DNA of 63,974 bases, filler included, from an uncultured Myxococcia bacterium (GTDB lineage: Bacteria > CAZTWC01): the NCBI GenBank assembly GCA_964617105.1. It is 3 parts of 3 records of this genome, joined end to end, with 100 filler letters (N's around TTAATTAATTAA, not from the genome) between each part and the next. Parts side by side here need not be neighbours in the genome. Positions count along the whole stretch, not along the records: positions 22,822 to 45,538 come from CAZTWC010000027.1; 2 more parts are not named here. One strand, given 5' to 3'. The notes beneath the pieces were generated by a model. It did not search any database. It saw only the letters and a list, made by a program, of their open reading frames with translations, and was not told the origin of the DNA. Positions 35,097-50,777 of this stretch are shown in pieces. A program made the translations under genes and the position numbers. Positions within the stretch are counted from its first letter, which is position 1; every line of letters starts with the position of its first letter.

Positions 35097-35988
35097 ATGA
35101 AAGGTAAATTTTATCCCATATCTATTTTTCTAATCTACCTTGTGCTACAAATTTTTTCGCTTCAGGCCATGGCGGCTCGTCATAGTCGAGGCCACGGATG
35201 GAAACGGATGCCGCGGCTAAAATCACACATGGCCGTAGTGTTAGACAATGACAGTGGTCAGATTCTCTACCGGAAAAACAGCCAACTGGTAAAATCGATT
35301 GCCTCCATCNNNNNNNNNNNNNNNNNNNNNNNNNNNNNNNNNNNNNNNNNNNNNNNNNNNNNGGCGTAAAATAGTCACTATTCAAAGATGTGACCGGGAC
35401 ACCATCCGCTGGTCCCGCTCCCGTTTGAAAATTGGTCAAAAGTTTACCCGGAAACAGTTATTAAAGGCGATGTTAATTGGATCTGACAATCGGGCTGCTT
35501 TTGCCCTGGCCCGCTCCATATACGGCTCTAAGAAAGATTTTGTTTCTATGATGAATCAAAAAGCCCGAAGGTTAAATATTTATAACACCAATTTTGCCGA
35601 TCCCGCCGGACTAAGAGATGCCAACCAGAGCAATGCTCAAGAGGTTGCGATTTTGGCCCACCAGGCTTTTAAATACCCGTTAATCAGAAAAATCAGTCGA
35701 AAATCTCGTGTTTCATTGCTGCCAAAAAATTTCCGGCGTCGAGTTCAGTTGTATAATCCAAATCGACTTACCCGCAACCGTTACTGGGGAATAGAGGGAA
35801 GTAAAACCGGTTATACCAGCAATGCCGGTTACTGCCTGGTGATGGAGGTAAAAATTAAGCGACGCAACTATATTTTTGTATTTTTAAATTCTGCCGGCAA
35901 ATTTTCCCGACTGGGTGATTCACAGCGGGTAAAAGGGTGGCTGCGCAAAAACAAACGGTCGGTACTGTTAGCCCGGGCCAACTATTAA
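35097..35988 (+). CDS. Peptidase S11 D-alanyl-D-alanine endo/carboxypeptidase (PBP7-like), one gene across the gap at 35310-35362
   Basis: Signal peptide, SIASI (SxxK cut by the gap), SDN, F.DP.GL, SKTGYTSNAGYCL. Confidence 0.88.
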
Positions 35989-36050
35989 TCCCGGTGTTCA
36001 CCAATAGGTTGACCTCGGCTTACTGCCAAATCCCTAAAAAGTGGCGATTT

Positions 36051-37460
36051 TCAGGCTAGATTGTTCCACAACCGGCAGATCAACTCCGCATTTCTCAAGG
36101 AAGTTCCGGTTAAGTTCTTAATCTGTTCCCGGGTCTTATCTCCAAATCGCTGGGTTCTTTCTGGTTCCATCAACATAAGGCTAACCTCTTTTTCAAGGGC
36201 TTTCATATCAGCGGCCATAATGGCGCCACCCTGCAAAAGCAAATCTCGCTCCAGAATAAAATTATCCATGTAAGGGCCAAAAAGGATAGGCAGGCCCCAG
36301 GCGGCCGCTTCCAGAGGATTTTGACCGCCCCGTTTACAAAAACTCCCACCGATTATGGCCAATTGGGCGGCGCCGTACAGGGTGGCCAACTCTCCAATGG
36401 TGTCAATGATTATGGCCTCCCGGGGTTGGCTGGATTTTTTCTGACGCAAACCGGTTAGTAGATGGGTAATTATACCCTGGGCTGTCAATTTTTCTTTGAT
36501 TTTCCGGGCTCTTTCCGGGTACCGGGGCGCCACTAAAAAGCGCAGATGATCAAATCGCTGATGCAGCCGCCGGCAAAGGACAATGAGCCTATCCTCCTCA
36601 TCAGTATGGATAGAGCCAAACACCACCACTGTATTCTCACCACGCTGCCACCCGCTCAAGGATAAAAAATCGTTCAACTTTTGTTCATCAGCACCAGAAA
36701 CGCAATCTGCAACACTGCCACGGATAACCAGATTATCGTATTTGCTGTTGCCGGTGACTATCACCTTTTTTCGGGTAACGCCCAACTCTTGAGCCAGACT
36801 GGCGTCCATCTCGGTTCGGGACAGCACCAGGTTGGTCATCTCCAACAGGTTGCCTGTGACTTTAAAAAGAAAAGAGTAGCCCTTTAGTCGTTTAGAAGAG
36901 AGGTGGAGGTTGTTGATCACCACCGGGCATCCGCGGCGCCGTGCTTCCCAGATCATCAAGGGCCAAAGTTCAGTGTATTCCAGGATTAAAATTTGGGGTT
37001 GAAAATAATCAAACAGGTTTTTGACCGCGCCTCTCACTTCAAAAGGGGTAAAAATAGTCTGATGGGCTCCGGATAATTTCCCAGCCATGGCCAGGCCACT
37101 TCTGGTCTGGGTAGAGAAGACAAATTTGGCTGAGGGAATTTTTTTCTTCAACTCCTTCAACATTGGATATACGGCAGCTACATCACCTGCCGATGCCGCC
37201 TGCACCAGAATATTTACCGACTGGATAGCCGGCTCACTTTTTCGGCTATCTTGTGAGAGCCTAACATCTGCTGGCTGACAGAGTCTCTCTGTTTCCATTG
37301 AGGAAGATTTGTTTTTATCACAGTAAAAGCCAAACCTCTCCCGCCAGCGGCCGCGCAATTTTGGGGTAAACAAATAGAAAAGCATTATGGGAATAAGGAG
37401 CAGGTATCCTATTATAATGTATAGTTGCCGCCCCACAATTATAGGGATTCTTCTACCCAT
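36051..37460 (-). CDS. waaA: 3-deoxy-D-manno-octulosonic acid transferase
   Basis: WRERFG, AAS.GD, TELWP, TGNSKYD, GS.H.DEE, APRYPER, DTIGEL, GGQNPLEAA, FGPYMDNF. Confidence 0.93.
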   Translation of the reverse strand: MGRRIPIIVGRQLYIIIGYLLLIPIMLFYLFTPKLRGRWRERFGFYCDKNKSSSMETERLCQPADVRLSQDSRKSEPAIQSVNILVQAASAGDVAAVYPMLKELKKKIPSAKFVFSTQTRSGLAMAGKLSGAHQTIFTPFEVRGAVKNLFDYFQPQILILEYTELWPLMIWEARRRGCPVVINNLHLSSKRLKGYSFLFKVTGNLLEMTNLVLSRTEMDASLAQELGVTRKKVIVTGNSKYDNLVIRGSVADCVSGADEQKLNDFLSLSGWQRGENTVVVFGSIHTDEEDRLIVLCRRLHQRFDHLRFLVAPRYPERARKIKEKLTAQGIITHLLTGLRQKKSSQPREAIIIDTIGELATLYGAAQLAIIGGSFCKRGGQNPLEAAAWGLPILFGPYMDNFILERDLLLQGGAIMAADMKALEKEVSLMLMEPERTQRFGDKTREQIKNLTGTSLRNAELICRLWNNLA

Positions 37461-37822
37461 TGGATCACTTTATTGGCAATTTCCAGTGCTTCAATATAGT
37501 CATCTTCAGTCACCGGATCATATTCGCCAGGATACCTGGTTTCCACAGCAAATTCTGTCATGGTTTTTGATTCGAGGACAAATTCTGGTATTTTGACGCC
37601 TTTTTGTTCAAGTAATTCGATAAGATAAGCAATATCGTGTGTTTTTGGAAAAACGATCTCATTTGCTATGCATAGTGCTTTTAATGCTTTTTCCACTCCC
37701 TGTTGAGCATCAAAACAAATATCTTCAAAAAATATCTCATCAGAAACCTGGCCTGCATTGGCCTTAGCAAGATTACTCTTTGCTCTTTGCATCCATTTAG
37801 TAATTTTATCAAGGTTTTTCAT
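37439..37822 (-). CDS. HEPN domain protein (partner of MNT)
   Basis: W..RA..NL, CFDAQQGVEKALKA, PKTHDI..L, TRYPG. Confidence 0.88.
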   Translation of the reverse strand: MKNLDKITKWMQRAKSNLAKANAGQVSDEIFFEDICFDAQQGVEKALKALCIANEIVFPKTHDIAYLIELLEQKGVKIPEFVLESKTMTEFAVETRYPGEYDPVTEDDYIEALEIANKVIQWVEESL

Positions 37823-38129
37823 AAACTACTCTTCCTTTGTCTGCTGCCTCTTTATAGATGAGATAAGGATCGTTTTTTAATATCTCAAAACGCTCTAGAT
37901 CTGCGACAATAACATCCACTGGGGCACCAATATGATGGAAGTTACGGTAGATCTTTTTGGTCAGTGTTCTTTTATCTTTCAAATTCTGTTTTAGCACCAG
38001 CAAGTCCAAATCACTTTCTTTGTGAAACTGATCAGTTGCTCTTGAACCAAATAAAATAATTCTATCTGGTTGGGCTACCGCCACAATAGTTGAGATGGCT
38101 TTTTGTAAAGGTTTAAATATTTCTGCCAT
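37809..38129 (-). CDS. Minimal nucleotidyltransferase (MNT)
   Basis: IILFGS-X10-DLD motif, VDVIV, G.VVYE. Overlaps the HEPN gene. Confidence 0.9.
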   Translation of the reverse strand: MAEIFKPLQKAISTIVAVAQPDRIILFGSRATDQFHKESDLDLLVLKQNLKDKRTLTKKIYRNFHHIGAPVDVIVADLERFEILKNDPYLIYKEAADKGRVVYEKP

Positions 38130-38249
38130 TTTAATCTGCCTAGTTGAAATTGATAGAAAACCAAAATATAATTTATTATGATATTATTTTGATAATCTGA
38201 CAAGAGAAAATTGGGAATTCAACTGCATCTACACAAGAGAACTATTTTG

Positions 38250-38927
38250 ATGGAAAACCTAACAGAAAAAATTCGAATTATGCGGCGGGGGAGGATGGAA
38301 AAGATGGACAACCAGGCCTTATCCAACCTGATTGGTGCTTATAAAGAAATTTTAATAGACCTGGGCACCGGGGATGCCCTTTTCCCCTATCGCCAGGCCA
38401 AAGAGGACCCAAACTTGCTCTGTTTAGGTATCGATCCGGTGGCCGAGGTCATGAATAAAACTTCTAATCGGATTGGGCGTAAACCTGCACGGGGCGGAGT
38501 GAACAACCTTTTGCTGATGGTGGCCAGCCTGGAATCTTTGCCGCAAGCATTAAAGGGTTCGGCTCAGCGGTTGACTATCAATTTTCCCTGGAGCGCTCTC
38601 CTCCGCTTCCTGGTGGAGCCGAATCTGCCAATGCTGCTCAGATTACGCTCTTTGTTAAAACCAGAAGGCCAAATGGAAACCTTGCTCAATTTACAGGTTT
38701 TCAAAGATGACCAATACCGCCAGCGCCTCAACCTGCCCTGGCTGGATATGGAATATGTTAACACCTCGCTAAAGCCGTCCTGGAGCAAATGCGGTCTGCA
38801 AATAGAACACCTGAAACTGCTGGGGCCAGGTCAACTCCCAATACGCACCAGTTGGGGCCAGCAACTGACCATGGGCAGCAGCCGCGACACCATGTATCTC
38901 CGGGCCAGGGCTATTTTGGCCATCTAG
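38250..38927 (+). CDS. 16S rRNA (adenine-1408-N1)-methyltransferase, NpmA/KamB family
   Basis: IDLGTGD, GIDPV, KPARGGVNN, ESLP, FPW..LL and TSW..L..G..R, colinear with the remembered NpmA motifs IDLGTGDG, GIDPV, KPSKGGLSN, AESLP, FPWGTLL and SLWAKRL. Confidence 0.85.
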   Translation: MENLTEKIRIMRRGRMEKMDNQALSNLIGAYKEILIDLGTGDALFPYRQAKEDPNLLCLGIDPVAEVMNKTSNRIGRKPARGGVNNLLLMVASLESLPQALKGSAQRLTINFPWSALLRFLVEPNLPMLLRLRSLLKPEGQMETLLNLQVFKDDQYRQRLNLPWLDMEYVNTSLKPSWSKCGLQIEHLKLLGPGQLPIRTSWGQQLTMGSSRDTMYLRARAILAI

Positions 38928-39016
38928 TTCATTTTGCCCTGGTAGTTGCTGATTTTAGGTATTAATGCAAATAGTAGTTGAAATTAGCCATAGAGTTTGA
39001 TTATGATGTAACTACT

Positions 39017-40992
39017 ATGGATCTGATTATCGTTGAATCTCCCAATAAAATTAAAAAAATTAAGAAAATCGTTGGCTCTGGATACGATGTAAAAGCATCG
39101 GTGGGACACTTTCGGGACCTACCCAAAAAAAGTTTGGGGATTGATCTTGAAAAGATTTCAAACCTAATTACCAGATTGAATTCCAAAAGCGAAGAGTGGT
39201 TTCGCAAATAAAATCTGCAGGAGAAAAAGCGGATAAAATATTTCTCTCCACCGACCCTGACCGGGAAGGTGAGGCCATTGCCTGGCACTTGAAATATATT
39301 TTGGGAAAAAACGGTAAAAAGACTTTGCGAGCGACTTTTCAAGAAATCACTCCCCAGGCAGTTAAGCAGGCCATTCAAAAGGCCGGCCAATTAAATCTAA
39401 ACCTGGTAAATGCCCAGCAAGCCCGCCGAATTCTTGATCGGATTGTGGGCTATAAAATAAGCCCCATGCTCTGGCAATTTAGAAAAGGTCTTTCAGCAGG
39501 CCGGGTACAATCCGCCACCCTGCACCTGGTGGTGGAAAGGGAGAAAGAGATTCTAGGCTTTAACCCAGAAGAATACTGGGTGTTAAAAGTAAAATACAAC
39601 AACGGCCTGGTATCAGAATATGCCATTAAAGAAAAGGGGAAATTTCAAGCTAAAAAACTGGAGAATAAAGAGCAGACCGAAAAAATTATCTCCCTGGCCA
39701 AACAAAATGAACACCTGGTTAAATCTATTGAAGGGAAAAAAACTTTTACCAGGCCCAAGCCGCCCTTTACCACCTCCACCCTTCAGCAGGCCGCCTCATC
39801 CTCTTTGGGATTCAAACCAGCCAAAACCATGAGGGTTGCCCAAAAACTCTTTGAGGGCGGGCATATCACCTACCACCGGACCGATGCGGTTTTTCTCTCC
39901 AGTAACGCCATCCAAATGGCCCGGCAATATATAAATGAAAACTACTCAGAGAGTCTCCCGGATAAACCGCCATTTTACCGCGCCAAAGCCGGAGCCCAAG
40001 AGGCCCACGAGGCTATTAGGCCCACCACCCCAAAGAATTTTATCTCTGCTCCTCCGGATGAACTCAAACTCTACCAACTGATTTTCAGACGCTTTATTGC
40101 CTCCCAATGCAAGCCGGCTGAATATTTTAAAACCTTTATTTTAACTCAGGCCGGAGAAGTTCATTTTATCGCCTCCGGCTCTATCCTCACTTTTCCCGGT
40201 TACCTGAAATTTTACGCTGGAATTGACTCAAAAGATAAAGATGAACAAAACCAGTTGCCTATGGTGAAAGAGGGAGAAAAACTCCTGCCAGACCAATATT
40301 TGCCCGAGCAAAAATTTACTAAGCCTCCTCCCCGCTTCACTGAGGCCAGTTTGATTAAAGAGATGGAAAAATGCGGTATTGGCCGCCCTTCAACCTATGC
40401 CGCCACCGTGCAGGTGCTTTTCACCAGGGAATATATCCTCAGTGAAAAGAAAAATGTCTATCCCTCGGAATTGGGATCTTTCATTGACGATCTTTTAGAT
40501 AAAGGGTTCAACCAGTTAGTACTGGCAGAATACACCGCCGGCCTGGAAGAGAAACTGGATCTTATTGCTGAAGGCAAACTCCACTGGACCAAGTTTTTAG
40601 AAGAGTGGTTTCGCAAATTTGCCCCTCAACTGGATGTTTCCAAAGTGCTTTTTAAGGATCTGGCCAAACAAAAAGGGGCTGACTTTAAAGTCGGCGGCGG
40701 AGAAGCACAAACCGCCTCTGTACCCAAGGTGGTTCGGGGAGTTAAGTGCCCGGAATGTGAAGGTGATATGGTGGAGCGTAAAGGAAAATACGGTAAATTT
40801 TACGGTTGTGCAAAATATCCCGCCTGCAAGGGGATATTGGACCCTAAGAGATCTAAGAAGAAAGCCCCCAAAATTGCCCAGGGGATCGTTTGCCCGAACT
40901 GCGGCGGGGAGATGGTAGAGAGAAAAGGAAAATATGGCGCTTTCTATGGTTGTAAAAATTATCCCAAGTGTAAAGGGATTGTAAAAAAATGA
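39017..40992 (+). CDS. topA: DNA topoisomerase I with a 1-bp frameshift near 39150 (probable homopolymer error)
   Basis: [17 protein letters not shown], then in another frame [27 protein letters not shown] (catalytic Tyr), [19 protein letters not shown] and two Zn-ribbon repeats. Confidence 0.93.
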
Positions 40993-42285
40993 CTGAACCA
41001 TCCTCACCCTATGGTTGTCTTTGGATTGTTGGCACCCCTATTGGTAATGCTGATGATATCTCCCAGCGGGCTATAAATATTATCAGCTCTGCCAGTTTGG
41101 TGGCGGCTGAGGACACCCGAAAAGGGCTCTGGCTCTTAAAACATCTGCGGATCAACACCAAACTAATCAGTTGCCACCAGCACAACCAAATGGGGCGCGT
41201 TGATCTGGTGCTGTCAATTTTGGCTAAAGGAGAGAATGTTGCCTATATCTGCGATGCCGGCACCCCGGGTGTTTCTGATCCAGGCTCGCTTTTGATCGAT
41301 GCCGTGGTTGCCGCTGGCTATGAGGTGCAAGCAGCTCCAGGCCCCAGCGCGGTGACTACGGCGGTTTCCATCTCCGGCCTGGCCGGGGCGGGATACCATT
41401 TTCTTGGTTTTTTACCTCGAGGTAAATCCAGGCGCCGGGATGAATTACGAATTTTGGCCGCTTCGCACCGTCCTATGGTGCTGTTTGAATCGCCCCGCAG
41501 GATCCTTCCCTTGCTAAACCTGATTCAAGATACCCTGGGAGATCGCCAGGCAGTGCTCTGCCGGGAATTGACCAAAACCCACCAACAAGTGCTGCGTGGC
41601 CGGATATCAGAAATAATCGACAGCCTGGCGGCCAGGCCTCGCGGGGAGATCACCCTGGTAATATCGGGATATCAAAAAAATCAAAGCGATTCTGCCGGGG
41701 CTGATAATCAACTTTTGCCCGATATCGAATCCCGGGCAGCGGAATTGCTGAACCAGGGGATGAGCAAACCTCAGGCTGCCCGCTGCCTGGTGGATGAAAC
41801 CGGAGGCAGCATCAGCAGAAAAGAAGCCTACTCCCTGGTGTTACGGGCCCAAAGACCCCATCAAGAGATCAAATTTCGAGCCTGGGGCGATCCTGAGATC
41901 CGCGCTAGTCACGATAAAACCATAGAGTTCACCCGGGAAAAAGAGATCAACCTGCGCCAAACCTGTGTAGTCGGGGTAGAGGCAGATTGGGAGCCAACTG
42001 ATTTAAAGGGGCTGTCGGGCAAAGGTACAATCACCATTAAATCTGGTACGGNNNNNNNNNNTTGAGGTTATTTTTAATCCCAACTTTTCATCGGGTCAAA
42101 AAATTATTTTTCGCCGCAGCAATTATACCTGCGCTGCCACTTTAGGAAAATCAGCCGCCAAAGGTGCATCTGACCTGGATCCAAGATTAAAAGAGAAACT
42201 ATCCACTGACCAACAAGAGATAGAGATCTTTATATTGACGGAAAAGGTTAGTCCCTGGAGTCCAAAATCAACTGTTGACAAATAA
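40989..42285 (+). CDS. rsmI: 16S rRNA Cm1402 methyltransferase RsmI fused to a C-terminal DUF371-like domain (gap at 42052-42061)
   Basis: VGTPIGN..DIS.RA, AAEDTR, DAGTPGVSDPG, FESPRR, RELTK. Then RAWGDPEIRASHDKTIEFTRE...CVVGVEAD, and after the gap FNPNF...IIFRRSNY...TLG...KGASDLD..L to a TAA at 42283-42285. Confidence 0.85.
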
Positions 42286-42375: not shown

Positions 42376-45300
42376 ATGCAGCACTATTACAAATATTTAT
42401 GGCCCCTCATGGCTATCATAGTTATTTCCGCCATTTTTATTCCCCTTATAGTTTTTTTGCCCTCCCCTGACCAGCCAGTGGACAATCCGGTTAAATACAT
42501 GACAAAGCACCGGGATCACCTCGATCATTCTCACTTTTTTAATACCCCCTTAAAAAATGGACCCCAGGTTACCAGAGCCTGCCTCAAGTGCCATAAAGAA
42601 ACTGCCCGGGAGGTAATGAGCACCAGTCACTGGCAGTGGTTGGGAGATAAAGTGAAAATTCCAGGTCATAAAGAACCGATGCGCATAGGAAAAAAGAATT
42701 TAATTAATAATTATTGTATTGGCATCACCGGCAATTGGGCTTCGTGCACCTCCTGCCATGCTGGCTATGGCTGGAAAGACAATTCCTACGATTTTAACCG
42801 GCAAGAAAATGTTGATTGCCTTGTTTGCCACGACGGTTCTGGCACCTACTACAAGCAAAAAGCGGGTCTGCCCGGAAAAAAAGTGGACCTCCTTGCAGTT
42901 GCTAAGAGTGTTGCCAGGCCAAAGGGCGAAAATTGCGGTTACTGCCACTTTTCAGGAGGGGGCGGCATGGGGGTAAAGCATGGCGATCTGGATTCCAGTA
43001 TCAATTATCCTCCCGAACGGGTTGATGTTCACATGGGCAGATACAAAATGACCTGTAGCGATTGCCACAAAACCGAAAAACATCTCATTAAGGGCCGTTC
43101 CATGGCGGTCAGCGTTGATAAAAAGAACAAAGTATATTGCACAGACTGTCATACTCAAAAGCCCCATGATGATCAGCGCCTCAATACCCATACCAACTCC
43201 ATTGGTTGTAAAACCTGCCACATCCCCCTGGTTGCCCAACGTATCCCCACCAAAACTTATTGGGATTGGTCAAAGGCGGGCCAGGACATTAAGGAGGATC
43301 CTCATAATTACTTAAAGAGAAAGGGCGAGTTTAAGTATGCCTTTAACCTGAAGCCGGAATATTATTGGTCCAATGGTACAAATTTCCGCTATATCCTTGG
43401 CGATAAAATAGACCCCGAAGCAGTTACTAAAATAAATGCGCCCCGGGGTGATATAAAAGACAATAATTCCAAGATAGACCCCTTTAAGGTTCACCGGGGA
43501 AAACAGGTTTATGATAAGAAAAACAAATATTTCTTACTGCCCACAACTGCAGGCAAAGGCGGTTATTGGCACAATTTCGATTGGGACCAGGCCTTGCGTT
43601 TGGGAGCAGAGGCCACCGGAATAAATTATAGCGGTGAATACGGTTTTGCTAAAACCGAGATGTTCAAGGCTCTCTCCCATATGGTAGCCCCCAAGAGAAT
43701 GGCCCTGGGATGTACAGACTGTCATGGAAACGATAGTCGATTCAACTGGGAAAAATTGGGCTATGAAGGCGATCCGGCCTTCAGTGGGGAACGGTATAAA
43801 ATGCACCCTCCCTTCCCGCTACTCGATGGGCAGGGAGAAAAAGTGTTACACAGCGGCGGCCCTCTATCCACCATGAAGACCTGCGGTAAATGCCACGACA
43901 CTGACTATATTGCCAGGCACAACTATCATGCCCAGGCTAGCCTTCTGAATAATGACCAAACCATCCCACCAGAAAGTGCCAGTGAAGATCTCTCTGGCCA
44001 GTGGAGACAGAGTGCCTTCAAAAGAATTAACGGGAATATGGAGGTTAACTGTCTTATCTGCCACCTGAAAAGCCCGGACAATCGGGAACGAGTTAAAGCA
44101 ATGCAAAATGAGCAGTTTGAATGGTCCATTACTGCAACCCTGGCCAATAAGGGCATTGTAAAGAGAGATTCTGCCATGCTCTGGCGCTGGCAGGAAGAAA
44201 ATTTTAACCTTGACGGCACCCTGAAAAAGGGAACGGTAAATCTTAGATCACCACAAAATGAAAATTGTGGTCTTTGCCACGGCCTGGTTCATAACGGCCA
44301 GAAGCCTGTAACCCTTGAGAAAAATCGGGCGGCAAATTGGAACTCAGCCTTTACGGGCCAGATTATTTCTCCCCAGAACATCTTTGATTCCGGCCTGAAT
44401 ATCAAAGGAAAAAAACAATTATCCAGACCCTGGGATATCCATGCCGCCCGCATGCTCAATTGCACCGCCTGCCACCATTCTTTAAACAATCCCTTTTACA
44501 ATTACCCGCAACAGAACTCGAGAACAACAACTCTCAGCCACTTGATCTACGACCGCCGGGGGATGAATATAAACAAATTTTTATACCGACCCAGCCACCA
44601 GTTGGTTACTGGACAGAGTGCTAAAAAAACAGCGGCAGAACAATTTAGAGGGACCATGGGAGACTGCAGTACCTGCCATGATGCCCAAAAAGTGCACCAG
44701 TGGCTGCCATCCAAAGAACGCCACCTGCAAAAACTCAACTGCCAGGCTTGCCATGTTTCCAACCTCTACGCCCCTGCTCTGAGGCAAGTTGACTGGACCG
44801 TTATCAATAGAGAGGGAAAACCGCGGCTGGAATTCAGGGGTATTGAAGAGAATAGTGCAGCATTGAACTCTTTACAGACGGGTTATGCTCCTTTCCTGCT
44901 GCCACGCCAGGAAATATCCTCCAGGATTGCCTTGCATCCCTATAATCTGGTTGGGACCTGGTATTGGGCGGCGGGAAAAGAGGAAGGGCCCATCAATACT
45001 AGTTTATTAAAAGATGCTTTTTTGGAAAATGGCAATTACCGGCGGGTGGTCATGGATACATTTGATAAAGATGGCGATGGGCAATTGAACAGCAAGGAAT
45101 TGAAACTTGACACCAAGAAAAAAATCGAGGTAATCAAACAGAGGTTTGAACTGCTGGGTCTTAAAAATCCACAGATTAAAGCAAAACTCGAACCTTTTGA
45201 CGTTAACCATGGGATTTCCAAAGGCGCCTGGGCCATAAAAGAGTGTCAAACCTGCCACCAGGGCAAATCGCGCCTGGAAGAATCCATTGCGCTGGGTTCC

Positions 45301-45538
45301 TTTGCTCCTGGTAATATTATTCCAGATCTCCCCAAAGATACCAACCTCATGCTGGCTGGAAATTTTTCTTTTTCTGAAGAGGGTTCGCTATCTTTTAAAC
45401 CAGAGTACGATACCAAACATCTCTATATCTTTGGGCATTCCCGATGGATATATCTCGATATCTTAGGATTACTGCTGCTGATAATGCATTTTCTGGGAGC
45501 CTTTGCCCATGGAGGATTACGTTTTTATTGGGCCCGGG
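42376..45538 (+). CDS. Multiheme cytochrome c: octaheme tetrathionate reductase (Otr)-like domain + 7-heme domain + start of a membrane domain; 3' truncated
   Basis: 15 CxxCH motifs; Otr-like GKKNLINNYCI, KHGDLD, DVHM, WDWSKAG, PFKVHRGKQ.YD and SHMVAPK; EF-hand-like DKDGDGQLNSKE; terminal TM helix ending AHGGLR. Confidence 0.88.
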
Positions 45539-45638: not shown

Positions 45639-48600
45639 GACGGCAACTTTGTGTGCACTGAAAATCCTTTGGAGGATGTAACTGACGCCAGTTCCAACCT
45701 GATTGGAAAACGGGGCGGAAGTTACTGCCATTACCAGTGTATTAGCCAGCGAGAGAGTTGTGATGGTATTGACAACGATTGCGATGGCAAAATAGACGAA
45801 GGCTGCGGGCAACTGGATCCAGAAGCCCATATTGGTAAAGAGTGCGCTGATGCTTCTCAGTGCCAGAGTCTGCACGGCCGCTTGAGCCTGTGTGTGAAAA
45901 GTAAACCGGAAGATTCCATGGGGGTATGCAACATCCCCTGCCAACCAGGCGGTTTTGAATGCAGCAACCTGATAAGTGCTGACCATATGTGCACTCAGGT
46001 GGCTGGAGTTAATTTTTGCAGCACCAAGTGTATGAACAATCACGAATGCCGCGACCATATGGTCTGCCAGAAGGACAATAATGGCCGGATGGTTTGCCTG
46101 CCTGGCGTCAAGACTGACCAGGATGGTGATGGTTATTCTCCGCCGTTGGACTGTGATGACAGCAACGCCGATCTCAAGCCAGACAACTATGACAGTTGTG
46201 ATGGCATTGACAACGACTGCGATGGGAAAACCGATGAGGACCAGGGCCACATAGACTGTGGAGAGGGAGAGTGCCGGGTGACAGTACCTGAATGCGTGGA
46301 TGGTAAAACCAATCAATGCACCCCGGGAGAGCCAACAACTGAAACCTGTGACGGACGCGACAACGACTGTGACGGCCAGGTTGACGAAGATGCCGGCTGC
46401 GCTCCAGTTATTGGCAAAAGTTGCACTAGTGACAGTGACTGCGGAATGCATTTAGGAACCAAATCGGTTCAGGCCAGTTGCCTGGAAAGTGATGGCCAAA
46501 AGATCTGTATCCTCAAAAACCCGGGCTGTCCCAAAGAGGGCTGTCCAAGCAATACTATATGCTTGAAAGATCGGATTTTGGATGAAATTTGTCTGCCCAA
46601 TTGTGATCCTACCGGTTGTGCCATCCCAGGAGAATTCATCTGCCAGCCCAATTTTGAAAAAGATTTCTTTTGCTGGCGCAAATGCCAGACCAATAGCGAT
46701 TGCCAAATCTATCTGGCGGATGAAAACAAAACCATAAATCTGGTCTGCAGCAGCAGCGGCCAGTGTTTTCCGCCTTGCGATGTCTCCAGGGGCGACAATT
46801 GCCCTATCGGCGATTCCCAGAATACCGGCAGTTTTATCTGTATTGGTAAAGAAATACAAGATGTATTGGATAGCAACAACCAGGTGCTCGGCCAACGAGG
46901 CGGCGACCATTGTATCAGACGCTGCCTGGAGGATAAAGACTGCGGTCCCAATATGTTCTGCAATCACAAAATAAAGCGGTGCCTGGGCACACCTTGTAAT
47001 AGTGATGAAGAATGCGGTAGTGATTATACTTGCAGTAACTACAAATGCGTATTCTTCTGCGCCAACAATGAGGAGTGCCGGCCCGGAGAGATCTGCAACA
47101 CCACTGATAGCAGGTGCCATCAAAAAGATTGCCTGAACACCCTGGAATGCCCTATGGGCTCCTTCTGTGATCTGACCGATAAAAAATGCCGGCCTGGAGT
47201 AGTTGAAGGATGTAAAGATGATGGCGATTGCGCTTCAGATCACTTCTGCGACCAGTACGAGCACCTTTGTAAACCCAGGTATTGCAAACTAGAGTCCGAC
47301 TGTGCCGAAGGATTTGTCTGTGAAGATGGCAGCTGCCACCACACAATGCCTGCCTGTAAAACCGATGAAGATTGCGGAACAGGCAATAACTGTCAAATTG
47401 CATTTGGTGCTACTGAAGGCGAATGTCACCCCAAACCCTGTGAACAAGACTCTGATTGCGGCGAAAATGCCCGCTGTCAACGCTCTGCCCATATCCCTTT
47501 CACATCTGGGGGTAGTGCAATGGAGGTCTTCNNNNNNNNNNATATCAAACAGTGCCGTTTCTGGTGCAATACTAACGACCAGTGTTCTCCAGGTGAGTTC
47601 TGTGACCATGCTGACAATCACTGTAAAAAAGAGATGATCCCCAGATGCGGTAAAGACACCGACTGTTTCCTTGATCATTATTGTCAGATTGAAGCGGGGA
47701 ACAGCCAGGGCGAGTGCAAAGTAAAAGCCTGCACCACTGATACCGAGTGCCGCCAGGGTTCAAAATGCAACCTTGACACCAAACATTGTTACCCCTATTG
47801 CGACCTCAACAATACCTGTCCGGAAACCTATTTCTGCAACTTTGAGGAGCAGCACTGCTTTAAAGGCTGTAAAGCCGATGGAGATTGTCCGGATGCAGAA
47901 AATGGTACCAGTTTCTGCAATATGATTTTGCACACCTGCCAGCCGGGCAAAGCCCAGTGTTACAGAAATAGCGACTGTGCTGCCAACAACTATTGCGATC
48001 TTAGAGATCTTACCTGCAAGCCCTTGAATTGCCAAGTGAATGCAGATGGCACCAGCGACTGTCCGACCGGAGAGATGTGCGACCGGGTGGATTACCAGTG
48101 CCGCCCCCATCAAAGATGTACAACTGATGCTGACTGCGGCCATATGTTGTATTGCGACCAGGCTAACAGTACCTGTACCTACAAAGCCTGTTCTGACACA
48201 GAAAAATGCAGTGAAGGATTTGTCTGCGATACTACCAAAAATATCTGCCAGCCCACTGCCTGCCAGGAAGACAGCCAATGTCTGGAACACCATTTCTGCG
48301 CTGTAGATATGGGTTACTGTCTGCCCCGCAGCAAAAGACCTTGCACAGAACACCAGGAGTGCCAAAGTTGGGAACGCTGCCGGATATATACAGTGGATAC
48401 CACGCTGATCCGTTTGTGCGTCAATGCCCATTGCCAGGCAGATGAGGACTGCGGGCCAGGCGCGGTTTGCAACCTGGATAAAAATGGTTGTGAACTAACC
48501 AAATGCGCATCCAGCCAGGATTGTGATCCCGGAATGTTCTGCGATCCCCAGGGACGCTGCCTGCACCAGGGGCCAAAACAGTGTTCCGCCACCAGTGAGT

Positions 48601-50777
48601 GCAACAGTTGGGAGGAGTGTAAAAAGGATGAAAATAGCCTCTCTGACACCAACACCTACTGTCTGCCTAAGGGCTGCACCACCGACTCTGACTGTGGTGC
48701 TGACGGCGCGGTTTGTGATCAGGCAACTAAAACCTGCCATTCCGGCACTATCCAACCTGGATGTAAAGTGGATTCCGATTGCACCGACGATCACTTCTGT
48801 GATCAGGCTGATAATCAATGCAAACCAAAGCAGCAACACACCTGCACGGAGGACAGCCAATGTCCATCAACCCATGGGTGTGATCCCAATGACAACAAAT
48901 GCTGGCCCAAATGTAATGTGGACAACGACTGCCCGGCGGGATTGTCCTGCAATCCAGCCAGCAAATTGTGTGTCTGGTATTGTGATCCCCAAAGTGCCAT
49001 CCAGTGTGACACCAGTACCGTCTGTATTCCAGTTGAGCCCAAACACTCGCCAACCGGCGGTTTTTGCTTTAAAAAATGCGATCCTGCTCTTACCGATCCC
49101 GGCTGTAAAGCAGGCGTTGACAATGTAGGCGAAATTTGTTTATCCATTGGCCAGGCTGGCACAAATGTTTGTGTGCGCAAATGTACCACCAATGATCAAT
49201 GTCCCACCGACAATGTTTGCGATCCTGGCACTGGACAGTGTAATCCCACCGGACCGCCCAAATGCGCATCCAGCACCGAGTGCAACAGTTGGGAGGATTG
49301 CCGCACAGATGAAGCCAACCCTGCTGACACCACCACCTACTGCCTGCCGAAGGGCTGCACTGACGACACGATTTGCGGAACCGATGCTCTTTGCATGAAG
49401 GAGAATGGAGCCCAAACCGGGCACTGCAACCCCAAATGCCAACGCAATGAAGATTGCCCGCCGGATCACACCTGCGACCCCAACACCAGCATGTGCAAGC
49501 CACCAGAACCAGTCTCCTGTGCCAGTGATGGTGATTGTGCAACTGACCACTATTGCGATCAGACTGATAATCAATGCAAACCCAAACAGCCCACCTGCAC
49601 TGAGAACAGCCAGTGTCCATCAACTAACTATGGCTGCGATCTCACCGATAATAAATGCTGGCCCAAATGTGATGTGCCCGCCGATTGCCCCGCTGGACTA
49701 AGTTGCAATCCAAACACCAACTTGTGTGTCTGGTATTGCGATCCCAATGGTTCTAATCAGTGTGACACCAATACCGTCTGTATTCCAGTGGATACCACAT
49801 ACTCACCCACTGGCGGGTATTGCCTGAAAAAGTGTGATCCTGCTTTCACCGATCCGGGTTGCAAGATGGGGTCTGACAATTGGGGTGAAGCCTGTATTAC
49901 CCTTGGACAAAATGCGATAAATGTATGTGTAAGGAGATGTAAATCCGACTCAGAGTGCAGACCCGGTGTTTGTGATATAGCAACCGGTAAATGCGGCCCG
50001 GCCGAACTGCCCAAATGCACCGACGGCACCGAGTGCAACAGTTGGGAAGAGTGTAAAAAAGATGAAAACAACCTCTCTGACACCAACACCTACTGTCTGC
50101 CTAAGGGCTGCACCACCGACTCTGACTGTGGTGCTGACGGCGCGGTTTGTGATGAAACAACTAAAACCTGCCATTCCGGCACTGTCCAACCTGCATGTAA
50201 CGTGGATTCCGATTGCACCGCCGATCACTTCTGCGACCAGGCGGACAATCAATGTAAACCCAAACAGACCGCCTGCACGGAGGACAGCCAATGTCCAACT
50301 GACCACTTCTGCGATCAGGCTGATAATCAATGCAAACCCAAACAGACCGCCTGCACTGAGGACAGCCAGTGTTACGAAGGCTTTGTTTGCGAGCAGACCA
50401 CCAAGAAGTGCTGGCCCAAGTGCGATGTTGACACCGATTGCCCGGCTGGACCAACTTGCAATCCCGACACCAATATCTGTGCCTGGTTCTGCACTCCTGG
50501 ACAGATGAACCAGTGCGATGCTAATACCTTGTGTGTTCCGGTTACTACAAATATTTCACCCACCGGTGGAATGTGCTTGAAAAAGTGCGACCCGACCAAT
50601 CCAACTACCTGCAAAACCGGCATAGACCGAGTTACCGAGGTCTGCCAGCCCTGGACTACCGGAGAAGCCTTTTGTAAACCGCCATGTAAAGAGGACAAAG
50701 ATTGCGACGATGGCTCAAATAGTCTTATCTGCAACGATGCCACCGGTCTATGCGAGGCTGGTACGGGTGGGTTCTGA
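45639..50777 (+). CDS. Giant cysteine-rich repeat protein (5' truncated, internal gap at 47532-47541)
   Basis: Open frame of more than 1700 codons, three CDG(I/R)DNDCDG motifs, a DQDGDGY..DCDD motif and dozens of CxxDxDC-type modules. Confidence 0.85.
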   Translation, partial: DGNFVCTENPLEDVTDASSNLIGKRGGSYCHYQCISQRESCDGIDNDCDGKIDEGCGQLDPEAHIGKECADASQCQSLHGRLSLCVKSKPEDSMGVCNIPCQPGGFECSNLISADHMCTQVAGVNFCSTKCMNNHECRDHMVCQKDNNGRMVCLPGVKTDQDGDGYSPPLDCDDSNADLKPDNYDSCDGIDNDCDGKTDEDQGHIDCGEGECRVTVPECVDGKTNQCTPGEPTTETCDGRDNDCDGQVDEDAGCAPVIGKSCTSDSDCGMHLGTKSVQASCLESDGQKICILKNPGCPKEGCPSNTICLKDRILDEICLPNCDPTGCAIPGEFICQPNFEKDFFCWRKCQTNSDCQIYLADENKTINLVCSSSGQCFPPCDVSRGDNCPIGDSQNTGSFICIGKEIQDVLDSNNQVLGQRGGDHCIRRCLEDKDCGPNMFCNHKIKRCLGTPCNSDEECGSDYTCSNYKCVFFCANNEECRPGEICNTTDSRCHQKDCLNTLECPMGSFCDLTDKKCRPGVVEGCKDDGDCASDHFCDQYEHLCKPRYCKLESDCAEGFVCEDGSCHHTMPACKTDEDCGTGNNCQIAFGATEGECHPKPCEQDSDCGENARCQRSAHIPFTSGGSAMEVFXXXXIKQCRFWCNTNDQCSPGEFCDHADNHCKKEMIPRCGKDTDCFLDHYCQIEAGNSQGECKVKACTTDTECRQGSKCNLDTKHCYPYCDLNNTCPETYFCNFEEQHCFKGCKADGDCPDAENGTSFCNMILHTCQPGKAQCYRNSDCAANNYCDLRDLTCKPLNCQVNADGTSDCPTGEMCDRVDYQCRPHQRCTTDADCGHMLYCDQANSTCTYKACSDTEKCSEGFVCDTTKNICQPTACQEDSQCLEHHFCAVDMGYCLPRSKRPCTEHQECQSWERCRIYTVDTTLIRLCVNAHCQADEDCGPGAVCNLDKNGCELTKCASSQDCDPGMFCDPQGRCLHQGPKQCSATSECNSWEECKKDENSLSDTNTYCLPKGCTTDSDCGADGAVCDQATKTCHSGTIQPGCKVDSDCTDDHFCDQADNQCKPKQQHTCTEDSQCPSTHGCDPNDNKCWPKCNVDNDCPAGLSCNPASKLCVWYCDPQSAIQCDTSTVCIPVEPKHSPTGGFCFKKCDPALTDPGCKAGVDNVGEICLSIGQAGTNVCVRKCTTNDQCPTDNVCDPGTGQCNPTGPPKCASSTECNSWEDCRTDEANPADTTTYCLPKGCTDDTICGTDALCMKENGAQTGHCNPKCQRNEDCPPDHTCDPNTSMCKPPEPVSCASDGDCATDHYCDQTDNQCKPKQPTCTENSQCPSTNYGCDLTDNKCWPKCDVPADCPAGLSCNPNTNLCVWYCDPNGSNQCDTNTVCIPVDTTYSPTGGYCLKKCDPAFTDPGCKMGSDNWGEACITLGQNAINVCVRRCKSDSECRPGVCDIATGKCGPAELPKCTDGTECNSWEECKKDENNLSDTNTYCLPKGCTTDSDCGADGAVCDETTKTCHSGTVQPACNVDSDCTADHFCDQADNQCKPKQTACTEDSQCPTDHFCDQADNQCKPKQTACTEDSQCYEGFVCEQTTKKCWPKCDVDTDCPAGPTCNPDTNICAWFCTPGQMNQCDANTLCVPVTTNISPTGGMCLKKCDPTNPTTCKTGIDRVTEVCQPWTTGEAFCKPPCKEDKDCDDGSNSLICNDATGLCEAGTGGF
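48580..50760 (+). repeat. Three long intragenic tandem units (about 0.7 kb each) in the Cys-rich gene
   Basis: GAGTGCAACAGTTGGGA recurs at 48597, 49278 and 50031. Positions 48597-48829 and 50031-50263 are near-identical at the DNA level. Confidence 0.85.

Follow-up and report, generated by a model that had tools for sequence, protein, structure and literature searches.

Is a gene of the NpmA/KamB type in an uncultured Myxococcia bacterium a new aminoglycoside resistance gene, a housekeeping modification enzyme or part of something larger? The gene (below, kam) lies on C27, one of three joined contigs that form the stretch of 63,974 nucleotides analysed here (the window). The host assembly comprises 4.07 Mb in 489 contigs, with 43.7% GC and 96.5% completeness. 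Taken alone, kam is an ordinary, new member of a known family. Its value is that it gives entry to a Kam-DUF371-RsmI module.

Kam is an intact member of the A1408 methyltransferase family

The reading frame of kam is free of stops (Table 1), and every motif that an earlier note on this DNA had picked out was recovered in its translation: DLGTGD, GIDP, KPARGG, ESLP, FPW and TSW (D37-G39-G41-D42 followed by Ala, D62, K78-G83, E95, W114 and W202). The proposed NpmA/KamB-like nature of the product also held, as it matches the Pfam profile PF24675 (NpmA) with 194.9 bits (cut-off 60; E 1.4e-57) over profile positions 7-212 of 214. The protein database gives a 207-aa form starting at a later ATG; we prefer the long 225-aa form because homologs and the structural model support its N-terminal beta-hairpin. 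In Logan contigs of four public runs that match 35400-42050, kam shows neither substitution nor indel, with no single piece spanning the gene. The runs with this stretch are marine or seawater metagenomes from two studies and may include the source sample.

Among solved structures the best match is Kmr (4RWZ, E 8e-50; 40% identity in the fold comparison), and the ten best solved relatives, with Kmr first, are A1408 methyltransferases throughout. The AlphaFold model (pLDDT 95.5) has a class I fold in which a hairpin is present at the N-terminus and the beta5/6 and beta6/7 linkers are extended; it reaches TM 0.89 to 3MTE (NpmA) and 0.86 to 3MQ2. In Foldseek, only A1408 enzymes matched it below 1e-16, and TrmB structures stood at about 1e-9.

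That kam is a candidate new resistance gene, as the earlier note had put it, is true only in part. It does belong to a resistance family, but it is merely a new member of a large one, with 29% identity to NpmA and scores under every NCBIfam allele cut-off (NpmA 95.7 bits against 470, NpmB 119.9 against 460, KamB 87.8 against 350, WarA 92.8 against 305). We counted 826 family representatives at E <= 1e-3, 455 at E <= 1e-10 and 60 at E <= 1e-30. Kam was found in 2 of 200 random bacteria, and the nearest relatives of the window gene are dispersed over unrelated phyla. Chromosomal members from non-producers, such as Kmr and CacKam, are already described in PMC4705659. A query with the window protein alone returned no related loci in genomes, and an alignment query none in viral contigs. 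Two widely separated Kam copies lie on a single Solidesulfovibrio chromosome (L020, L021).

Alignment with CacKam places D37 of kam on D36, G39-A43 on the GTGDA of residues 38-42, D62 on D61, E95 on E94, W114 on W113, T200/S201 on S201/S202 and W202 on W203. According to the CacKam work in PMC4705659, D36, D61, E94, S201, S202 and both Trp are required for activity. Among 156 relatives, W114 is kept in 156/156, W202 in 152/153 and R212 in 126 of the 152 aligned. R212 stands ten residues past the second Trp, like R207 of NpmA (a spacing inferred from W197/R207 in PMC4705659). The basic beta2/3 docking loop RKPARGG is present along with R212, whereas Q205 of kam occupies the place of the essential R206 of CacKam. 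Kmr has a His there; among 152 relatives the position holds Arg or Lys in 119 and Gln in 7.

These residues and the family tree bear on a further possibility, that kam encodes an inactive enzyme or a TrmB-like one with another target. The departure of Q205 from the basic residue of most relatives speaks for it, as do weak TrmB matches (TIGR00091, 31.5 bits against a cut-off of 112.65), but these span residues 22-113 only, and all essential CacKam residues except R206 are present. The host also has a separate TrmB-like gene elsewhere (112.4 bits on a partial frame; TIGR00091 cut-off 112.65). Clustering with TrmB, which the earlier note had named as an outcome against its claim, was not seen in a quick tree, where kam falls among Kam proteins and apart from four TrmB rows (SH-aLRT 97), beside L099 and near L019. 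This tree has 150 rows, keeps Kam matches of at least 170 profile positions, omits 16 Sorangium loci and uses an outgroup of six rows, two of which are not TrmB. Given the tree and the fold as well, an inactive or TrmB-like enzyme seems highly improbable to us.

Genomic neighbourhood and origin

ORF and profile scans bore out topA and rsmI downstream of kam on the same strand. Two features absent from the earlier note are the fusion of RsmI to DUF371 and the low-GC HEPN-MNT pair upstream of kam (Table 1). They likewise agreed with the earlier note in that no transposase or aminoglycoside gene nearby scored above cut-off among the 20 C27 ORFs scanned.

Table 1. Features around kam, in positions of the window
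Feature	Position	Strand	Remarks
MNT (37809-38129) and HEPN (37439-37822) pair	37439..38129	-	Type VII toxin-antitoxin-like; GC 36.5%; divergent neighbour directly upstream of kam
Sigma-70-like promoter match TTGAAA-17-TATAAT	38144..38172	+	11/12 consensus; 78 nt before the kam ATG; consensus match only
Kam/NpmA-family 16S rRNA (A1408-N1) methyltransferase (kam)	38250..38927	+	Intact, 225 aa; Pfam profile, structure matches, AlphaFold model
topA	39017..40992	+	Between kam and rsmI; GC typical of the genome
RsmI-DUF371 fusion	40989..42285	+	About 432 aa; TIGR00096 197.3 bits (cut-off 167.9)
DUF371 (PF04027) domain	41877..42234	+	C-terminal on RsmI; about 3 kb from kam; full length

In the genome, which is 96.5% complete, PF01761 matches a single protein, AroB (370.8 bits, cut-off 305), and the scanned C27 ORFs hold no 2-deoxy-scyllo-inosose synthase; therefore we see no sign of a 2-deoxystreptamine pathway. 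A self-resistance gene of an aminoglycoside producer, which would sit in a biosynthetic cluster with that synthase, was accordingly rejected. What stands is the reading as an environmental homolog without a producer cluster, environmental members being common (455 clusters). Searches of plasmids and phages (tblastn) and of viral contigs, run without a positive control, gave no match to kam. The FmrO/ArmA family had no match in the host, and the control genomes likewise gave none. Assembly of the host 16S rRNA stops at model position 873, and the helix-44 motif was not found in the assembly.

A scan for promoter-like sites found six, against 3.4 +/- 1.5 in shuffles. The topA frame appears shifted near 39149; a low-depth contig from run X3 carries an additional A after this position, and the shift is probably an assembly slip, a reading that rests on this contig. 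A second topA, with 39% identity, lies on contig C80. The MNT-HEPN pair is inserted between waaA and kam, and a second HEPN homolog is found on C47.

Among 2132 genome ORFs, kam ranks at the 98th percentile for GC (51.3%) and the 100th for GC3 (60.4%), rsmI-DUF371 at the 100th for GC (53.5%) and HEPN-MNT at the 2nd-3rd. High GC is common to kam and rsmI-DUF371, without the topA between them. The composition of kam suggests an older acquisition, and the gene likely arrived together with rsmI-DUF371 as one helix-44 modification module.

A lineage-wide, vertically inherited housekeeping modification of the decoding centre, the second option raised by the earlier note, would suit the position of kam among housekeeping genes and the fusion of DUF371 to the only rsmI found. 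This reading is disfavoured because of the sporadic spread (2/200) and a GC far above that of the genome. The GC3 of kam at the top of the genome range, its nearest relatives in scattered unrelated phyla and a frequency of only 6-7% of genomes in two groups surveyed all point the same way, and we consider a housekeeping role very unlikely.

DUF371 recurs as a companion of Kam

We compared 162 Kam loci: the best 80 of 246 from GTDB genomes, the best 80 of 156 from metagenomes and two more. At least 3 kb on both sides was available for 82 of them. DUF371 lies near Kam in 29/162 loci, in 28 of these no more than 1.1 kb from the Kam domain, and Pfam confirmed it in 28/28 submitted loci (L130 is a duplicate of L129). 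RsmI was found within 6 kb of Kam in 13/162. The earlier note had named RsmI as a neighbour. Its presence is indeed no coincidence, but the conserved partner is DUF371 carried on RsmI. As conserved Kam partners, topA, waaA, hisS, HEPN and MNT were rejected, each occurring in 0/162 loci.

The domain takes several arrangements at these loci: Kam-DUF371, RsmI-DUF371, DUF371-RsmI and DUF371 on a decayed RsmI-like domain. Kam-DUF371 fusions are represented by six proteins and L023. Aligned to RsmI by hhalign, the three groups of RsmI parts gave 99.3%, 97.0% and 38.7%. In the Kam tree, DUF371-bearing loci fall on several distinct branches. At L019, the nearest GTDB relative of the window gene (56% identity), kam overlaps rsmI-DUF371. 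At L129, whose Kam is 91% identical to CacKam (23 differences in 249), a DUF371 gene lies directly upstream.

Two neighbouring situations were also noted. At L099:2528-4055, the tree sister of the window gene, rsmI ends at 129 aa and is followed by a transposase-like frame (putatively IS630-like). In a small-genome clade of Proteobacteria (L070, L076, L114, L116) a plain rsmI directly follows kam, and DUF371 was not found in the two genomes tested.

DUF371 was found in 0/400 random bacteria, in 0/150 further genomes of the class of G061 and in 0/156 of that of G063. Within the family of G061, 7/121 genomes carry DUF371 and 8/121 carry Kam; the seven are the same, and the eighth Kam contains a stop (G282, among the seven, carries an unpublished flag, and without it the count is 6/6). 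The order of G062 gave 7/127 and 8/127, again with the same seven and an eighth Kam with stops. Among 400 Actinomycetota searched through DUF371 alone, two were found, both with Kam on other contigs.

Whole-genome searches detected DUF371 in 25 bacterial genomes, and every one of them has Kam as well; 20 were already known to be Kam-positive and five were new (G338, G342, G354, G789, G801), the samples being centred on Kam-positive lineages and kin not being independent. Of 50 Kam-bearing genomes tested, 41 have no DUF371, Sorangium included. In these genomes DUF371 comes with Kam and Kam often without DUF371, an asymmetry that would be expected of a step downstream of Kam. As a genomic unit, the Kam-DUF371-RsmI module is well supported.

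In both groups surveyed, the sole Kam copies without DUF371 are those that hold stop codons (G331:C170:14898-15439 and G403:C81:5882-6502). It looks as if the methyltransferase decays after partner loss, or the reverse.

Conserved residues of DUF371 and the copy in the window

In an alignment of 118 long DUF371 proteins (numbering of P0175), H17, K19, E22 and C35 are present in 115/115 aligned sequences, R85 in 118/118 and H10 in 110/112. The two archaeal DUF371 structures share the His, His, Glu, Cys and Arg. Metal-dependent hydrolytic deaminases typically combine His and Cys ligands with a Glu. HxE...CxxC, the motif of known Zn-dependent nucleoside deaminases, is not present in the alignment.

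The rsmI-DUF371 gene of the window begins with a 4-nt overlap of the topA stop and is the sole RsmI found in the genome (one tblastn match). Contigs of runs X4 and X5 bridge an N gap with two extra bases, and its frame is therefore continuous. DUF371 keeps H308, K310, E313 and C326 as well as the conserved Arg and Ala. Asp301 takes the place of the family His (H10 of P0175), and contigs of X1, X4 and X5 agree on it. One other DUF371 protein, P0232, has the same change, and Asp is able to bind a metal. The window copy may be altered or inactive.

It is here that another view has to be weighed, in which kam is a stand-alone, Kmr-like intrinsic resistance gene and DUF371 on RsmI a decaying leftover of a donor module. 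The His-to-Asp change would fit it, and so would the topA between the genes, a promoter-like site of its own on each side, the rsmI shortened by a transposase-like frame at the sister locus L099, and two close Solidesulfovibrio copies in a genome without DUF371. Yet the window DUF371 is in frame, of full length and has kept the other five near-invariant residues; P0232 shows the same change, and Asp can serve as metal ligand. We judge the stand-alone view unlikely.

Fold and archaeal distribution of DUF371

The fold of DUF371 matched only 3CBN (MTH639) and 7Y7N, followed by the PTS IIA structure 2F9H (Z 7.4, rmsd 3.4 over 107 residues). No cytidine-deaminase or amidohydrolase fold was among the listed matches; an unlisted family may still match. 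The fold is a barrel unlike that of known deaminases (see also PMC4256011). All clusters returned by the ESM Atlas were DUF371, most of them archaeal. A complex prediction for Kam and DUF371, with SAM and Zn included and chains from different organisms, scored 0.01 against a mark of 0.32, which speaks neither for nor against an interaction.

Archaeal tRNA acquires m1I57 in two steps, methylation by TrmI and a subsequent deamination, the enzyme of which was 'still to be identified' according to a 2021 review (PMC7912444). In the literature from 2021 onward, we found no paper naming an archaeal m1A57 deaminase. The modification is reported in H. volcanii (PMC2584109) and in S. acidocaldarius (PMC12124282, Table 1), and misincorporation indicates it across nine archaea, M. 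jannaschii among them (PMC13520502). In an LC-MS study with an m1I standard, which covered tRNA from yeast, P. syringae and M. acetivorans, m1I is termed a eukaryotic modification (bioRxiv 2020.09.03.281246, PMC8494288).

A search of 14 control genomes included four archaea, all of which have the TrmI family. DUF371 was found in M. jannaschii, H. volcanii and S. acidocaldarius and not in M. acetivorans, each time the search was repeated. The DUF371 pattern matches the m1I pattern in 4/4 archaeal controls, with n = 4 and the M. acetivorans negative read from one sentence. M. acetivorans could be without m1I for other reasons, such as TrmI specificity. DUF371 was found only together with an m1A writer, namely Kam in bacteria and the TrmI family in three archaeal controls. 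COG1491, the deaminase candidate of 2008, which we take to be PF04919, is present in all four archaea; since these include M. acetivorans, it fits worse than DUF371.

Discussion

Family membership, an intact frame and the fold form the first step of the mechanism that we propose, and they are shown by the comparisons above. In the second, the kam product would likely methylate N1 of A1408 in the assembled 30S subunit. By residue match to CacKam and Kmr, SAM would be bound by D37, GTGDA, D62, E95 and T200, the basic RKPARGG loop would dock on the rRNA, and the flipped A1408 would be stacked between W114 and W202. Resistance to kanamycin, neomycin and apramycin, as in the family, would follow as the third step. 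In the fourth, DUF371 is carried either by Kam or by an RsmI scaffold with the same target helix; the link is seen in the genomes, and the scaffold would deliver it. Jointly, these four steps, an intact enzyme likely methylating A1408 with DUF371 as a recurring partner, appear to us to be probable.

The fifth step is proposed more tentatively. In it, by what we consider its single likeliest chemistry, DUF371 would carry out the metal-dependent hydrolytic deamination of m1A1408 to neutral m1I1408, by the same two-step route as for archaeal tRNA m1I57. DUF371 might then be the missing RNA m1A deaminase, yielding m1I57 in tRNA after TrmI in archaea and m1I1408 in bacteria with Kam, DUF371 and RsmI, with the often catalytically decayed RsmI as a helix-44 delivery scaffold. 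The evidence being indirect, we hold this to be possible but doubtful.

A higher probability, though somewhat short of an even chance, goes to DUF371 as a true partner with another role: a reader of m1A1408 or helix 44, a helper of RsmI or RsmF on the A1408-methylated subunit, or an enzyme that catalyses a different reaction (rearrangement to m6A, methyl removal). Its fold, with 3CBN, 7Y7N and then 2F9H as matches, resembles no known deaminase. Resistance methylations are reported to disturb neighbouring housekeeping methylations (PMC3923132), which would favour the RsmI-linked helper. Against these roles, the invariance of His, Glu, Cys, Lys and Arg is more in keeping with an active site than with a binding surface, the RsmI part is decayed in many loci and DUF371 is not, and the archaeal m1I pattern is left unexplained.

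Among known systems, Kmr of Sorangium cellulosum (PDB 4RWZ, 4RX1) comes closest to kam: it is also chromosomal, ranks first in Foldseek and has a TSWGQxL beta6/7 linker without the Arg of CacKam, and kam is 44% identical to the So ce56 locus L045. It differs in its separate tree branch, and a search of two Sorangium genomes gave no DUF371. CacKam of Catenulispora acidiphila (PDB 4X1O, 5BW5) shares GTGDA, the SAM-pocket and the Trp residues, whereas its identity to kam is about 31% and R206 stands where kam has Gln. Its relative L129 has as partner a DUF371 attached to a heavily decayed RsmI-like domain (only 39% by hhalign). NpmA, NpmB1, KamB, WarA and UncKam have the same fold and both Trp, as in kam, and the Arg ten residues after the second Trp corresponds to R207 of NpmA; their identity to kam is 26-33%, and the NCBIfam scores of 88-120 bits compare with cut-offs of 305-470. 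Unlike this group, kam lies in a setting where neither a producer cluster nor a mobile element was seen (20 C27 ORFs scanned).

The RsmI part of the window protein passes the model of the 16S rRNA C1402 2'-O-methyltransferase and differs from it by the added C-terminal DUF371. Many related loci have a degenerate RsmI part, with DUF371 at the N-terminus. The archaeal m1I57 pathway resembles the proposed deamination of m1A1408 in that, once an m1A-forming methyltransferase has acted, a further reaction takes place on the same base. Its substrate is tRNA, whereas here 16S rRNA in the 30S subunit is predicted.

The conserved His/His/Glu/Cys set in DUF371 and the match to archaeal m1I are new here. 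They make DUF371 a candidate for an orphan reaction, the enzyme of which the 2021 review calls unidentified (PMC7912444). Should the deaminase proposal be true, it would provide the first function for DUF371, a family with two solved structures, and m1I1408 would add to the decoding site an undescribed rRNA modification, made in two steps; in the literature searched, without most subscription journals, we found no paper on a function of DUF371 or on m1I at 1408. In that case, CacKam and other characterised enzymes would cover no more than the first half of their native pathway. The counts suggest that about a fifth of the sampled Kam loci (29/162) may make something beyond plain m1A1408 in their own hosts. 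A product other than m1A would escape assays of the methyltransferase alone. In PMC12391297, m1A1408 is treated as positively charged, and drug-specific effects are shown.

Other features of the window

A REP-like dispersed repeat, built of a short inverted core plus a GC-rich tail, occurs at positions 1073, 3197 and 21931 of the window, and has 43 matches on 35 contigs. Positions 45651-50777, from contig C48, encode a cysteine-rich repeat protein of 1708 aa, presumably of a kind found in Myxococcota. At 42376-45538 lies a large multiheme cytochrome, ended by the contig edge, with an N-terminal half like octaheme tetrathionate reductase and a second multiheme half.
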